The notes under the pieces were generated by a model. That model saw only the letters and a list, made by a program, of their open reading frames with translations. It made no database searches and was not told the DNA's origin. From positions 15,640 through 79,639 of the forward strand of contig JBGTHM010000023.1 in the NCBI GenBank assembly GCA_041746255.1: a stretch of 64,000 bases of DNA, in the 5' to 3' direction. The stretch is from Fibrobacteria bacterium. GTDB lineage: Bacteria > Fibrobacterota > Fibrobacteria > UBA11236. Below, piece by piece: positions 57,379 through 64,000 of this stretch (within the stretch, counting starts at the first letter, position 1; every line of letters starts with the position of its first letter). A program made the position numbers and the translations under genes.

Positions 57379-58476
57379 ATGACCAAATACATTTATCAGT
57401 ATGACCAATGGCCCAATCTCAAATGGGATGATCAAGAAATTCAAGTGATTCTAGGCAAAGTCCGTCATTTCCAAGGAAAAATTTCCGGCCAGATGGAGGC
57501 TATGGGATTTTCCCAAAAAGAGGAAACTATGCTTTCCACCTTAACTCTTGATGTCCTTAAATCGTCCGAAATTGAAGGTGAGATATTAAACCAAGAGCAG
57601 GTTCGCTCTTCCATTGCGAGACGATTAGGATTGGATTTCGCCGGGATGGTCAGCGCTGATAGAAGCGTGGAAGGCGTTGTTGAAATGATGCTGGATGCGA
57701 CGCAAAGGTACAACCAACCTCTCGAACATGAGCGGATATTCGGATGGCACGCGGCATTATTTCCCACCGGCTGGAGTGGTATGCACAGGATTGGGACTGG
57801 TCGTTATCGCAATGGCGATATGCAAATAGTTTCCGGGCCAATGGGGAGCGAGAAAGTCCATTACCAGGCTCCACCTCCTGAAATTGTCAAACAGGAAATG
57901 GATGTTTTTTTGGATTGGTTAAACGGGGAAACCAGGACGGATGCAGTATTAAAAGCGGCTATCGCCCACTTTTGGTTCATTATTATCCATCCTTTTGAGG
58001 ACGGCAATGGACGCATTGCAAGAGCGATATCCGATATGTTACTTGCGCGCTCAGAGGAGAGTTCCCAAAGATTTTACAGCCTATCAAATCAAATATTGAC
58101 GGAGAAAAAGATATACTACGAAATTCTACAAAGAGTCCAACATAGCAAGGGTGACATAACCGAATGGTTGGTTTGGTTCCTGAACTGTTTATATCGGGCC
58201 CTGGCTTCAACTGAGGAGACCTTAAATAAAGTCCTGTATAAGGCGGAATTTTGGGATAAACACAGAGAAACCATTTTAAACGGTAGACAACGATTGATGC
58301 TGAACAAAATGTTGGATGGATTTGATGGAAATCTGCAATCTTCAAAATGGGCGAAAATAACGAAGTGTTCCGTAGATACCGCGCTAAGGGATATTAAGGA
58401 TTTGATCGAAAAGGGAGTTTTGCAACAAAAAGAATCCGGGGGAAGAAGTACAAATTATGAATTGACTGGAAAATGA
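57379..58476 (+). CDS. Fic-family protein with N-terminal DUF4172 and C-terminal HTH
   Basis: SSEIEGE inhibitory motif; HPFEDGNGRIAR; DTALRDI...GGRSTNY. Confidence 0.95.
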   Translation: MTKYIYQYDQWPNLKWDDQEIQVILGKVRHFQGKISGQMEAMGFSQKEETMLSTLTLDVLKSSEIEGEILNQEQVRSSIARRLGLDFAGMVSADRSVEGVVEMMLDATQRYNQPLEHERIFGWHAALFPTGWSGMHRIGTGRYRNGDMQIVSGPMGSEKVHYQAPPPEIVKQEMDVFLDWLNGETRTDAVLKAAIAHFWFIIIHPFEDGNGRIARAISDMLLARSEESSQRFYSLSNQILTEKKIYYEILQRVQHSKGDITEWLVWFLNCLYRALASTEETLNKVLYKAEFWDKHRETILNGRQRLMLNKMLDGFDGNLQSSKWAKITKCSVDTALRDIKDLIEKGVLQQKESGGRSTNYELTGK

Positions 58477-58668: not shown

Positions 58669-59928
58669 ATGAAAAAGCTTCCCGTAACCGTACTCTCCGG
58701 CTTTTTGGGCGCCGGCAAAACCACCCTGCTCAACCACGTGCTCAGCAATCGCGAGGGCTTGCGCGTCGCGGTCATCGTGAACGACATGAGCGAAGTGAAT
58801 ATCGACGCCGAACTGGTCAAAAGCGGCGACGGCGCGTTGAGCCGCTCCGAGGAAAAGCTGGTGGAAATGAGCAATGGCTGCATTTGCTGCACCTTGCGCG
58901 AAGACTTGCTCATCGAAGTCTCGAAACTCGCCAAGGAAGGTCGCTTCGATTATCTGCTTATCGAATCGACGGGAATATCCGAGCCGATGCCGGTAGCGGA
59001 AACCTTCACCTTCGCGGACGAAGCGGGGAAAAGCCTTTCCGACGTGGCGAAGCTGGATGCCATGGTGACGGTGGTTGACGCCGTGGCCTTTCTACTCGAA
59101 TACGAAAACAGCGACAGCCTACAGGAAAGGTCCATGGCTCTCGGCGAAGACGACGACCGGACCATCGCCGATCTCTTAATCGACCAAATTGAATTCGCGG
59201 ATATTCTGGTGCTCAACAAATTGGATATGGTTTCGGAAGCGGCGAAAAACAAACTCACGGCCATCTTTAAATCCTTAAACCCCCAGGCCAAGGTATTGGA
59301 GTCCACCTACGGGCGGGTTCCGCTCCAGGAAATTCTCGACACCGGCCTTTTCAGCATGGAGAAAGCGGCGCGCGCCCCTGGCTGGTTGGCGGAGTTGCGT
59401 GGCGAACATATTCCCGAAAGCGAGGAATACGGCATCCGCAGTTTCGTCTACCGCGCCAAAAGGCCTTTCCATCCCGAACGTTATTGGGATTTAATGCATG
59501 AGGGATGGGACCAGGTGTTACGCTCCAAAGGTTTTTTCTGGCTGGCGACGCGCATGGACATCACCGGCTTGTGGTCGCAGGCGGGAGGCTCGGCTCAATA
59601 CCGGGCCAACGGTTATTGGTGGGCGGTATTGGACGAAGCCAATTGGCCCGAAGACGAAGCCACGCGAGCCAACATCCGTAAGCTCATCGGCGGTGAGTTC
59701 GGAGACCGCCGCCAGGAGATGGTTTTCATCGGCGTAAACATGGACGAGACGGGCATTCGCGCCGACTTGGACAAGTGTCTGCTGACGGATGAGGAAATGG
59801 CGCTGGGTGAAGAGGGGTGGAGCGGGTTTTCGGATCCGTTTCCAGCCTGGGAGGAGGAAATTGAGGAGGAGTTGGATGAAGAAATGGAGGAGGAAATAAT
59901 TGAAAGCTCTCCAATGAGCGCGGGGTAA
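58669..59928 (+). CDS. COG0523 (CobW/YciC/ZigA-type) zinc metallochaperone GTPase
   Basis: [15 protein letters not shown] (CxCC), [22 protein letters not shown]; acidic tail. Confidence 0.95.
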
Positions 59929-60713: not shown

Positions 60714-61586
60714 ATGACACTCTTAAGACAGCAATTCACTCAAGCGCTGGAGCTCCGTGGCTTCTCGCCCCATACCATTAATAATTATATCCTCGCTGTT
60801 GCCCGCCTCAGCCGGCGCTATGGAAAATCACCTGATACGATCAGTGACCAAGAAGTTCGCGAGCACATCCTCCACCTGAAATCCGAAGGTATCTCCGCAG
60901 CCACTTGCAACTTGCATATGGCGGCCATCAAGTCATTTTTCAAATCATGCCTTCCGGAGCGGCCCAATCCAGTTGGCCTCACCAGCATGAAAGCTCCCAA
61001 GCACCTGCCGGTTGTGCTGAGCTTGGATGAAACCATCCGCCTACTCACCTGCGCGGTCAATCCTAAACACCGGGCGCTTTTGAGCATCATCTACTCGGCC
61101 GGGCTCAGGCTGAGCGAAGCCATACATCTACGACCCGCCGATATTGATAGTCACCGGATGCGCATCCATGTCCGGGAGGGTAAGGGTGGAAAGGATAGGT
61201 ACACGCTGCTTGCCGGACCCGTGCTGGAGACGCTTCGGGAGTATTACCGCTGCTACCGGCCCGAAACCTGGTTGTTCGAAGGACGACACCGGGGCATGCC
61301 GATGAGTCCGCGCAACGTGGATGCGACGCTCAAACGCTGCGCCAGGCGCGCCCGCTTGGGCAAGCGGGTAACGGTGCACACGCTTCGGCACAGCTTCGCT
61401 ACCCATCTTCTGGAAGCCGGGCAGCCTCTGCAGGTTATACAAAGTCTGCTGGGCCACCGGAACATTAAGACGACCACTATCTACACGCACGTGACCGACA
61501 GGATGATGGCGGACCTGCGGAGCCCCCTGGAAGCTTTCACCCTTACCCCGAATCGTGCTAAGGAACAGGGGGCCGAGCATGACTGA
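60714..61586 (+). CDS. tyrosine recombinase/integrase with SAM-like N-terminal domain
   Basis: Complete catalytic set: GLRLSE, GKGGKDR, HTLRH, LGH, TTIYTH; AAGGAG RBS. Confidence 0.95.
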   Translation: MTLLRQQFTQALELRGFSPHTINNYILAVARLSRRYGKSPDTISDQEVREHILHLKSEGISAATCNLHMAAIKSFFKSCLPERPNPVGLTSMKAPKHLPVVLSLDETIRLLTCAVNPKHRALLSIIYSAGLRLSEAIHLRPADIDSHRMRIHVREGKGGKDRYTLLAGPVLETLREYYRCYRPETWLFEGRHRGMPMSPRNVDATLKRCARRARLGKRVTVHTLRHSFATHLLEAGQPLQVIQSLLGHRNIKTTTIYTHVTDRMMADLRSPLEAFTLTPNRAKEQGAEHD

Positions 61587-62805
61587 GAAGATTGCGGAAA
61601 GGAAACGTGGATTGGAAGTGGCGGAAGTCTTCTCGAGGGGCATGGCAGCCTATGCCAAAAACCACGGACCGCTTCCTCCCGCACATTGGAAGGTGGTGAA
61701 CGCCCTGGAACGCTGCCGCACGGCCGCAATGGGCGGGCACTCCTACAAGTGCGGGAACTGCGATTACGAAAAACAAGTCTACAACTCCTGCCGCAACCGG
61801 CACTGCCCCAAGTGCCAGGGATTGGCCCGGCTCAAGTGGGTGCAGGCAAGGATGGAGGAACTCCTGCCCGTAGAATATTTCCACGTAGTGTTAACCATGC
61901 CGGCCGAGCTCAACGCATTCGCCCTTCGAAACAAGGCGGCGTTCTACGACCTGCTTCAAAAAAGCGTGGCGGATACGCTTCTTTCATTATCGCGCGATCC
62001 GAAGCGCTTGGGTGCGGAGATAGGTTTCATCTCCGTACTGCACACCTGGGGTCAGAACATGATGGACCATCCGCACGTCCACTGCATCGTTCCCGCAGGC
62101 GGCTTGGAGGACGGCGTTCGATGGAAATCCCTCAAGGGCAAGTTTCTATTTCCGTTCAAAGTGATGTCATCGCTGTTCAAGGGCAAAATGTTAAGCGGGT
62201 TCAAACGGGCTGTGGAAAAAGGCGATATCCGCTTCCACGGCCACCTCGAGCAATACACCGACCCGGCACGGTGGAAGGCATATCTCGACGGCTTGTATGC
62301 GAAGAACTGGGTCGCCTACTGCAAGCCACCTTTCGCCGGGGCCGGTCAGGTCCTCAAATACCTAGGCGGTTACACGCACCGCATGGCCATCTCTAACCAC
62401 CGCATTGTCTCCATCGACGAAAACACCGTCCGTTTCAGATGGCGCAGCTATGCCGACGGTGGAAAGACCAAGGTGATGACGCTCGCGCATAAGGAATTCA
62501 TCCGGCGCTTCTTGTTGCATGTACTGCCTAAGGGATTTCAGCGCATCCGGTACTATGGATTCCTTGCCAACTGCAAGCGGAAAAAGGCATTGGGACGCTG
62601 CCGTGAAATCTTGTCTGCCAAGGTAAAGGATCCCGCTCCTGAAAAGGACATGTCCTCCGAAAAAGCCGGACAATGCGATCTTGTTAGCCTGTTCAAGAGT
62701 GTGTTCCACATCGACCTCACTTTTTGTCCAAAGTGCCGTAACAGGACGGTAAGCCCGACCTTCCCTCCGGCTCATGTACGTTACTCAAGAGGTGTTTTCA
62801 GGTGA
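61579..62805 (+). CDS. IS91-family rolling-circle transposase (HUH, Y2)
   Basis: Zn domain CRT...C..C...YNSCRNRHCPKC; LHTWG; HPHVH (HUH); YLGGY (YxxxY); RIRYYGFL; overlaps the integrase stop by 8 nt. Confidence 0.95.
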   Translation: MTEKIAERKRGLEVAEVFSRGMAAYAKNHGPLPPAHWKVVNALERCRTAAMGGHSYKCGNCDYEKQVYNSCRNRHCPKCQGLARLKWVQARMEELLPVEYFHVVLTMPAELNAFALRNKAAFYDLLQKSVADTLLSLSRDPKRLGAEIGFISVLHTWGQNMMDHPHVHCIVPAGGLEDGVRWKSLKGKFLFPFKVMSSLFKGKMLSGFKRAVEKGDIRFHGHLEQYTDPARWKAYLDGLYAKNWVAYCKPPFAGAGQVLKYLGGYTHRMAISNHRIVSIDENTVRFRWRSYADGGKTKVMTLAHKEFIRRFLLHVLPKGFQRIRYYGFLANCKRKKALGRCREILSAKVKDPAPEKDMSSEKAGQCDLVSLFKSVFHIDLTFCPKCRNRTVSPTFPPAHVRYSRGVFR

Positions 62806-63192
62806 GATGATTACTGTCCATGTATGCCAGAACGGGTCCCAAGCTAAAGGGAGGTTTCCATCCTATGCTTGATGGGCTGGAAATGCCATTTTTAAGTGAT
62901 TTTTTAATATTTTTCACAAGATATGAAACGGTCATTTAACCTAATATTCGTGTTTATCCGTCTACAGCCAGGCATCCGCAACGGCCAAAGCCCTCGATCA
63001 AACCCCATAGGGCGGCACCTCACCCCCGCGGCTTCGTTCAACTAAATTATTTCTACAATGCGGCACCAGAAGCGCCTATTTTTGAGCCTGTGGCAGGCAT
63101 TGCAGAAATAATCCTTAACGTTATGCAATGCTTGAGCCAATTTATCAGAATGCGCGCCTAAAACAGAAATCAAAAACTAAATTCAAAATACC

Positions 63193-63696
63193 ATGAATAT
63201 CCAATCTGAAAACTTAACTGATGGAACTATTCAATTAATCCCTCTTAGGGAACAGGATTTTGATGCTCTTTTTTCAGTCGCCTCCGATCCTCTAATTTGG
63301 GAACAGCATCCGAACAGCAACCGGTATCTGAAGGAAGAATTCTTGAAATTCTTCCAAGGGGCGATTGAATCCAAGGGTGCATTCAAAATAATTGACTGCA
63401 AAACTCAGGAGCCCTTGGGCTCAAGTCGGTATTACGATGTAGATATGCAGGAAAAGTCAGTCTTCATTGGATACACTTTCCTTCGGAGGGACAAATGGGG
63501 AGGAAACTACAATGCTCGTTTAAAGGCATTGATGATAAACCATGCCTTTCAATTTGTGAACAAGACCTATTTCCAAATTGCGACTACCAATATGAGATCT
63601 CTTCGGGGCACTGAGAAAATAGGGGCAACAATAGTCGGTACCCAAATTCTTGAAGGAATCGAGCATTTTGTTTTGGAAATGCAAAAGGAAAATTAA
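63193..63696 (+). CDS. GNAT (RimJ/RimL-like) N-acetyltransferase, cassette-like
   Basis: LIPL...DPLIW...IGYTFL...N.RS...EKIGA; visibly more AT-rich than flanking core genes. Confidence 0.88.
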   Translation: MNIQSENLTDGTIQLIPLREQDFDALFSVASDPLIWEQHPNSNRYLKEEFLKFFQGAIESKGAFKIIDCKTQEPLGSSRYYDVDMQEKSVFIGYTFLRRDKWGGNYNARLKALMINHAFQFVNKTYFQIATTNMRSLRGTEKIGATIVGTQILEGIEHFVLEMQKEN

Positions 63697-63736
63697 TACG
63701 GCGCGCTTAAAAATAATTGTGGAGGGCTCAAGCACA

Positions 63737-63988
63737 GCTTACAACAACGCACAGGGTGCTCCGCACGGGACAAGCCCGTGCTCCGGGGCTTCGCCCAAAT
63801 TGGTTTTGGGGTAAGCCCGGCAATTCAAAGGGCATCCTCACGGCGCCCGCTAAGGCGGGCTTGTTCCGGTGCTCCTTTTCATTGCGTGTTGCGGGCGAGC
63901 ATTCTGGGGGTCAAAGACCCCACTCCATGCTCGTCCTCACACATCGGGCTAACCCCAAAACCAACTTCACCCTCCGCTGACGTTATAC
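63737..63988 (+). repeat. about 250-nt branched palindromic attC-like site
   Basis: TACAAC...GTTATAC outer boxes, AGGGTG/CACCCT inner boxes, 20-bp stem 63800-63819/63945-63964, several internal hairpins. Confidence 0.7.
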
Positions 63989-64000
63989 AACATGCTGCCT

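Follow-up and report, generated by a model that had tools for sequence, protein, structure and literature searches.

Complementary ends of a GNAT cassette with a giant attC site, probably of a Fibrobacterota chromosomal integron, and an outer stem that would be rejoined in the excised circle

Introduction

The closest described counterparts of the sites studied here are the attC sites of integron cassettes. In the published accounts, these sites end at 7-bp boxes and are 57-141/142 bp in length (PMC5027507, PMC2727003, PMC3053210), and their terminal structures are given as 20-100 nt and "variable" in the IntegronFinder paper (10.1101/030866). The subject of this study was a one-gene unit encoding a GNAT acetyltransferase at positions 63120-63745 of a 64,000-nt stretch of DNA from an uncultured Fibrobacterota bacterium (positions 15640-79639 of contig C23 of the source genome, G000; hereafter "the window", whose coordinates are used throughout). 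The contig ends at window position 64000. An initial annotation of this DNA had proposed that the mutually complementary ends of the unit are the signature of a once-circular cassette. Movement of integron cassettes is generally attributed to circular forms, and the free form is hard to observe; the pairing of a cassette's start with its own inverse core is said to be the classical argument for a circular intermediate, made by Hall, Brookes and Stokes in 1991.

Much of the architecture of chromosomal-integron attC sites (e.g. VCR) recurs at this locus (PMC5027507, PMC2727003): R'' and R' boxes with AAC and GTT, an unpaired central spacer, an L box, and a branched terminus. The preference for the bottom strand, the G|TT crossover (predicted in the present case), and the presence of the cassette's first bases in its own site are likewise shared, as is, in the arrays of relatives, the co-oriented arrangement of promoterless, unrelated cargo beside intI and attI. 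The Fibrobacterota sites depart from the published accounts in length (237-319 nt, 250 nt in the window, against 57-141/142 bp), in the terminus (ca. 200 nt and kept in both sequence and structure, against the 20-100 nt and "variable" of IntegronFinder), and in the stem, which continues past the R box by two further cassette-specific helices. No account of attC stems outward of the R box, nor of an attC of ca. 250 nt, was found in the open-access literature. The GNAT unit is most likely a cassette of a sedentary chromosomal integron; with respect to its attC, it is a variant rather than a typical member because of the length and the outward stem.

A second point of reference is the DUF1874 motif, which Weinberg et al. 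2017 (PMC5737381) describe as a multi-stem motif of consecutive intergenic regions and propose as a possible unusual attC with a complex single-stranded DNA fold. The present sites resemble it in being a conserved multi-stem motif that is recurrent between genes. However, they belong to another sequence family: no Rfam family was matched by the whole window at the gathering threshold, nor by positions 63000-64000 even at E ≤ 1. Further, no integrase was seen beside the runs of the DUF1874 motif in that paper, whereas the Fibrobacterota genome has a true integron integrase.

Results

Pairing between the ends of the GNAT cassette

All features of the unit were located on the + strand. The letters and coordinates of the 5' end (63120-63138, GTTATGCAATGCTTGAGCC) and of the 3' end (63725-63745, GGCTCAAGCACAGCTTACAAC) were rechecked. 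The cassette starts with the R' box GTTATGC and two further nucleotides (63120-63128), which in the family layout form the 5' side of helix 1. These are followed by TGCTTGAGCC (63129-63138), the 5' side of helix 2, for which the initial annotation had claimed a perfect 10-bp complement at the other end. This claim was borne out: GGCTCAAGCA (63725-63734), the 3' side of helix 2, complements it at every position; apart from 63725, the + strand of the window (64 kb) has no place with a 10-mer complementary to the 5' arm (30 nt). The same pair was listed by an inverted-repeat search (I4, 17 nt at 82%). Beyond the 3' side of helix 2 lie the loop and the R'' box (CAGC TTACAAC, 63735-63745).

The cassette was also circularized in silico, and the junction was folded. 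All three outer helices were paired in this fold. The looser inward pairing that had been noted earlier was also present: AATTTAT (63139-63145) is matched by ATAATT (63713-63718), and GCGCGCC (63152-63158) forms a third pairing zone with GGCGCGC (63700-63706). These inward zones (5' side, 63139-63158; 3' side, 63700-63718) match the third helix of the family. In this cassette, helix 2 is perfect, helix 3 is short (GCGCGCC/GGCGCGC), and helix 1, beside GTT/AAC, is irregular (GTTATGCAA vs. GTTGTAAGCTG, read as the complement).

The next cassette begins at 63982, and its first 19 nt (GTTATACAACATGCTGCCT, 63982-64000) run to the contig end. In keeping with the earlier claim that the outer arm pairs with the start of its own cassette over the downstream one, helix 2 is matched by its own arm at 10 of 10 positions, whereas the downstream start has TGCT and little more in common with it. 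Logan contigs of a public run (X1), which contains this stretch and probably represents the source sample, branch at 63734-63742 and at 63984, i.e. at the cassette borders; one of them extends 518 nt past position 64000.

Taken alone, the window is suggestive rather than decisive with regard to end complementarity. When the 3' end was shuffled 20000 times, a complementary run of at least 10 nt between the 30-nt ends arose 14 times. A less strict comparison, of 120 nt with 120 nt, yielded z = 3.0 only. The motif GTTATRCAA by itself was without enrichment in the window (21 matches vs. 17.3 expected). The end pairing carries weight because it is positioned exactly at the cassette borders and because the pattern is family-wide.

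Own and other arms across the family

R' ends were found with a profile made from the attC copies, and cassettes were defined as 250-4000-nt intervals between consecutive R' ends on one strand. Longer intervals, which are probable multi-cassette stretches, were dropped, and near-identical duplicates were removed, leaving 28 cassettes including that of the window. Genome-wide and metagenome-wide pattern scans returned many chance matches in unrelated phyla; only loci that were also matched by the R'-end profile were kept. A partner ending in AAC at the attC start delimited 22 of the 28 cassettes. Their cargo is unrelated, with no BLASTP match at E ≤ 1e-5 among the longest open reading frames (ORFs) of these 22.

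When the 26 nt from GTT were scored against 3' tails, the mean was 26.6 for a cassette's own tail and 14.6 (standard deviation 2.8) for other arms, and the own arm came first in 23 of 28 cassettes. Compared with the arm on the far side of the same attC, the own arm scored higher in 22 of 26 cassettes and lower in the other four (Wilcoxon p = 4e-5, a value that overstates the case, as related genomes are non-independent). With cassette L016 (from the unpublished genome G021) removed, these counts became 22 of 27 and 21 of 25, respectively. Positions 4-9 after GTT covary with the R'' side of the cassette to which they belong, not with the adjacent one. The earlier proposal that the crossover occurs at G|TT, and that the full site exists only in the excised circle, is supported by this own-arm covariation.

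The same layout gives an expectation for the cassette that is cut off by the contig end: its 3' end would consist of the complement of TGCTGCCT..., a 2-3-nt loop, the complement of GTTATACAA, AAC, and attC. In a sister genome (G001) with an 86%-identical attC, the next cassette ends with the helix-2 complement, CGA, and the R-box complement, as predicted. In G000 itself, no convincing predicted 3' arm was detected; the pattern search gave coding-like chance matches on contigs C26, C30, C64, C102, and C123, and the last 19-60 nt of the window were found on no other contig of this genome.

Layout, strand, and energy of the outward stem

Helix 1 consists of GTT and the following 6 nt, and it matches at nine of nine positions in 15 of the 21 relatives. 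It is followed by a small loop, in which 10 of 21 cassettes have an additional base on the 3' (R'') arm and 19 of 21 have an A of the 5' arm opposite a C of the 3' arm; A and C are mismatched on the top strand, but the corresponding bottom-strand bases form a G.T pair. Helix 2 comprises 5-11 pairs (median 9), and the median length of the paired region is 21 nt. In helix 3, a T-run and a G-run of the leader pair with the trailer CCCCCAAA, in cassette-specific variants; its own-arm score was 23.5 vs. 14.6 for others, and the own arm came first in 16 of 22 cassettes. In many leaders, helices 2 and 3 are separated by a further side hairpin. In folds with DNA parameters, the bottom strand was more stable than the top strand in 19 of 22 cassettes. 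For the bottom strand, the circle junction exceeded the array junction in stability in 19 of 20 cases, by a mean of 12.6 kcal/mol.

A side observation concerns loci L040, L041, and L043, in which six cassettes with unrelated cargo have a common leader of ca. 70 nt (R box, helix 2, a GC hairpin, and TATTTTTTGGGGGCG). The same six have a matching trailer of ca. 35 nt, so that the ends resemble a common shell around unrelated genes.

The initial annotation had held that the extra stem is not a feature of classical attC sites. The class 1 control comprised seven unique intervals obtained by a relaxed generic hairpin search, at least two of them with borders that look merged or mis-set. In class 1 cassettes (dfrA14, aadA12, and others, on plasmids), as in the present ones, the first bases are complementary to the inverse core of the same cassette. 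The difference is that their own-end complementarity stops at 8 nt (dfrA14), 12 nt (aadA12), and 11 and 12 nt (two others), and that their longest exact run in positions 10-24 was 2-3 nt in all seven intervals, against a median of 9 in Fibrobacterota. In this small sample, then, class 1 pairing covers 8-12 nt and has no second helix, against a median paired length of 21 nt and an additional third helix in Fibrobacterota, as the annotation would have it. A Spirochaetia integron locus (L137) had a 7-nt second run in one of three cassettes and none in the others. Against this small classical control, the outward stem looks lineage-specific.

The giant attC site

The fold and the copies define an attC of 250 nt that extends from R'' (TTACAAC, 63739-63745) to R' (GTTATAC, 63982-63988). 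As single-stranded DNA, the bottom strand of 63739-63988 folded with -73.2 kcal/mol (z = -8.2). The site is made up of an R box, an unpaired spacer, an L box (AGGGTG/CACCCT), and a conserved multi-stem terminal structure of ca. 200 nt. In the consensus fold of 15 long sites, the R box (columns 5-10 with 361-366) and the L box (columns 19-24 with 348-353) are separated by unpaired stretches of 8 and 7 nt, and the terminal part is branched. The unpaired stretches in the L-box region are unequal at the level of this consensus fold. Compensatory changes were found in 39 of the 56 predicted pairs of the 15 aligned copies, those of the L box included, and all 15 copies have the AAC and GTT triplets unchanged. 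The R' box GTTATAC fits the core consensus GTTRRRY at six of seven positions, and the R'' box TTACAAC fits RYYYAAC at just five of seven; relatives often fit the cores fully, e.g. GTTGGGT with ACCCAAC.

Diverged copies of this attC occur on six other contigs of G000, mostly at contig ends; of 31 further genomes from the same family, 17 have them as well. Measured from R'' to R', sites of the family are 32, 56, 56, 138, 202, and 237-319 nt long. Two of the short ones, of 32 and 56 nt (L040, 10620-10662 and 11950-12001), are at or below the published minimum, and their cassettes keep the outward helices. In the terminal structure of the giant sites, unpaired motifs such as GCGAGGAC, GCAATGAA, and TGAATTGCC (bottom strand; alignment A2) are near-invariant across genera, which is surprising in a part of attC that is described as variable and hints at an added role, e.g. 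as a protein-binding site or an RNA.

The integron integrase and its arrays

An integron integrase was identified in the source genome with TIGR02249 (371 bits, cut-off 265) at 27174-28109 of contig C56; the cut-off was passed by none of 14 control genomes. The protein is 45% identical to IntI1 and has the SAM-like and catalytic domains. At its gene (L001, G000:C56, 1381-2763, minus strand), an N-terminal extension of ca. 107 amino acids (aa) is present that has no Pfam match and that also aligned in G001, G002, G006, G009, G012, and G037. An attI-like GTTATGC adjoins the integrase gene. The window, on a different contig from this intI, holds one full attC site and one candidate.

In a complete relative (G012), an array of ca. 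250-nt sites starts at an attI beside intI, with 12 sites in 8 kb. These sites represent another attC family and were located by a generic AAC...GTT hairpin search; the family R'-end profile gave no match near the intI of G002, G004, G009, G012, G013, or G001:C166. The cassette types of G012 retain their own arms regardless of the neighbor. At this locus (L228, G012:C1:1-8039, reverse strand), the near-identical ca. 250-nt sites recur every ca. 520 nt, and the cassettes between them, which measure 255-284 nt and fall into two or three types, follow one another in shuffled order. The locus also has two tandem integrase genes, one with an in-frame TGA. The array of G001 has at least four sites.

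Discussion

Proposed mechanism

We consider it likely that the GNAT unit is a cassette of a giant-attC integron in which the G|TT crossover splits a long stem that is rejoined in the circle, and that the outer stem has been selected. The data confine the crossover to the interval from the conserved ...C|G to position 4 after GTT. As positions 4-9 move together with the downstream cassette, it is equated with the canonical G|TT, and in the GNAT cassette it would lie between G63120 and T63121. According to this proposal, the integron integrase, whose activity is predicted from sequence, would exchange strands at the G|TT of R'. In the array, the bases after G would be those of the next cassette, and upon excision of the cassette as a circle they would become part of its own attC. 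Past the 7-bp R box, the stem would continue outward with a 9-bp helix and, beyond a small conserved loop, with a second helix of 9-11 bp and then a third one. As the crossover is inside this long stem, its outer half would be divided between the two ends of the cassette and rejoined only in the circle. The junction expected for the GNAT circle is ...CTGACG joined to TTATGCAATGC.... The outer stem may stabilize the attC of the free cassette in its folded bottom-strand form and so favor re-insertion at attI, while an array-resident site with a mismatched outer stem would be less prone to fold.

This proposal addresses the complementarity, the cassette-specific covariation, the bottom-strand bias, and the energy gain observed above. 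Divergent helices match their own partner across 0.3-3 kb, and the asymmetric loop is fixed; from these features, we infer that selection acts on the free cassette with its bottom strand folded and that it maintains the extended stem, which would stabilize the attC.

Several points weigh against the proposal. The own-arm score of the window cassette (20) is the lowest of the clear cases, and its helix 1 is imperfect. In the family, the own arm was not first in 5 of 28 cassettes, and 6 of 28 could not be delimited, although some of the non-conforming intervals probably hide an undetected attC. The helices proper are without strand bias (three bottom-type vs. two top-type transitions), so the bias comes down to one loop position. 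Some mismatches of helix 3 are of the top-strand G.T type and are compatible with an RNA role of that helix. No circular junction was present among the contigs of the public run, a data type that is blind to rare forms and neutral as to excision. The classical control was small (seven class 1 intervals, some of them doubtful, two additional hand-checked cassettes, and three Spirochaetia cassettes). Lastly, the array fragment in the window adjoins an IS91-type element, with the integrase elsewhere; its tie to the C56 platform is presumed, and recombination by the G000 integrase is a prediction.

A bolder extension is put forward only tentatively. The three-helix stem, together with the fixed loop and its bottom-strand-only pair, might be a working part of the site that is present in the circle only, by which the integrase, perhaps via its ca. 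107-aa extension, would tell circles from array sites, and the shared shells might serve as a chassis for new genes. If so, a mark confined to the circle would bias the system toward capture and away from loss, and shells that act as a chassis would bear on the unsolved origin of cassettes.

Alternative explanations

The outer pairing could instead be a relic. A long palindromic attC, formed at the birth of the cassette or copied, would have been split by the G|TT cut and would persist as a slowly decaying footprint that has no function. The geometry follows from the crossover alone under this explanation, the decayed helix 1 of the window conforms to it, and the six cassettes that share a ca. 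70-nt shell around unrelated cargo could mean recent copying of ends. However, helices 2 and 3 differ widely between cassettes and nonetheless match their own partner nearly perfectly. The preservation of helix 1 (nine of nine in 15 of 21) and of helix 2 (median of 9 pairs) across 0.3-3 kb is hard to reconcile with neutral decay, as is the asymmetric form of the loop, which is fixed in 19 of 21 cassettes. A relic is thus considered unlikely.

Less probable still is a function in RNA, in which the leader and the trailer would pair in the array transcript, either as a processing or stabilizing stem or to mask a G-rich stretch before the start codon. Helix 3 does join a T-run and a G-run just 5' of many start codons to the CCCCCAAA trailer, some of its mismatches would be G.U on the top strand, and a stem of this kind is possible without excision. 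Yet the complementarity begins exactly at the GTT/AAC of the recombination site, and the A that stands opposite C on the RNA strand in 19 of 21 loops can pair only on the bottom strand. The greater stability of the bottom strand (19 of 22) argues in the same direction, and in 3 of the 22 delimited cassettes the longest ORF is on the opposite strand.

The arms could also be the terminal inverted repeats of a transposon or a miniature inverted-repeat transposable element, moved by a transposase such as that of the neighboring IS91-type element. The unit does consist of one gene between inverted repeats, and an IS91-type transposase and a tyrosine recombinase lie directly upstream. The arms are, however, cassette-specific, with no conserved terminal repeat, and they start at the integron GTT/AAC boxes; no target duplication flanks 63120 or 63745. 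Further, the insertion sequence (IS) is single-copy in G000, and the pattern is present in many genomes that lack it. IS91-type elements are not known to have long terminal repeats. This origin is regarded as highly improbable.

Chance complementarity, which could appeal to the modest z-score of the unconstrained 120 × 120-nt test, has a negligible likelihood given the rarity of 10-bp runs among the shuffles, the sole occurrence of such a 10-mer in 64 kb, and the same layout at the same offsets in 21 other cassettes, and it was rejected on the basis of the family own-arm test and this shared layout.

Significance of the split stem

On the favored interpretation, a stem split by G|TT and rejoined in the circle, 20-40 bp of cassette-specific pairing that can form only across a circle junction has been recognized from comparative sequence alone. 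Such pairing would be independent evidence for a circular intermediate with a folded bottom strand in an uncultured phylum, and it suggests that selection acts on the free circular form. The sites define an attC type of ca. 250 nt that has a conserved branched core and an outward stem. Searches that are tuned to 57-141 bp could miss such sites, and Fibrobacterota integrons may be under-counted for that reason. Arms with and without compensatory changes would offer a simple system for studying hairpin stability in capture vs. excision.

Cargo gene and surroundings of the cassette

The cargo ORF (63193-63696, 167 aa) encodes a GNAT acetyltransferase (PF13302, Pfam E = 2e-13). Its G+C fraction is 0.405 vs. 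0.526 for the window. Eight GNAT homologues (48-55% identity, mostly from Bacteroidota) had no attC match and a G+C content equal to that of their flanks, and their flanking inverted repeats did not rise above z = 2.4. Because these homologues are without such borders and have a G+C content like that of their flanks, the gene looks captured into a cassette; the absence of the borders around homologous genes, which the initial annotation had counted against its own proposal, is what would be expected of a captured gene and is accordingly read in its favor.

Immediately upstream, positions 63036-63126 form a candidate attC of 91 nt, short and AT-rich, that would belong to the preceding cassette. 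It has an R''-like GTTCAAC, a 16-bp stem (63046-63061 with 63097-63112; inverted repeat I3, 16 nt at 94%), and the R' box GTTATGC, of which TTATGC is assigned to the GNAT cassette and not to the preceding one. The bottom-strand DNA fold has -16.3 kcal/mol and z = -2.0, which lends weak support to this candidate. It would represent a different, short attC type beside the 250-nt type, and the mismatch in its stem is also of the bottom-strand G.T kind.

Farther upstream, a gene for a tyrosine recombinase (60714-61586) overlaps that of the IS91-type transposase (61555-62805), which has Y2_Tnp and zinc-binding domains. No second copy of the IS91-type element was found in the genome at the nucleotide level. 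Its downstream non-coding end reaches GTTC (63035-63038), which is also the start of the R''-like GTTCAAC; the element may have inserted at an attC border, or it may carry the cassette along.

Elsewhere in G000, an unassembled multi-copy element interrupts two giant attC copies at the same internal position (C18:51357 and C37:66). It was also seen ca. 150 nt beyond the attI-like site near intI (C56:29087) and at the ends of contigs C47, C57, and C106. It may be an insertion sequence that targets attC, for which it is a candidate. A lead to its identity on contig C45 was discarded because it turned out to be an ORF resembling a pectate lyase.

Upstream of the IS91-type element, the window encodes a Fic/DOC protein with DUF4172 (57379-58476) and a CobW-family GTPase with an acidic tail (58669-59928); both look like ordinary chromosomal genes.

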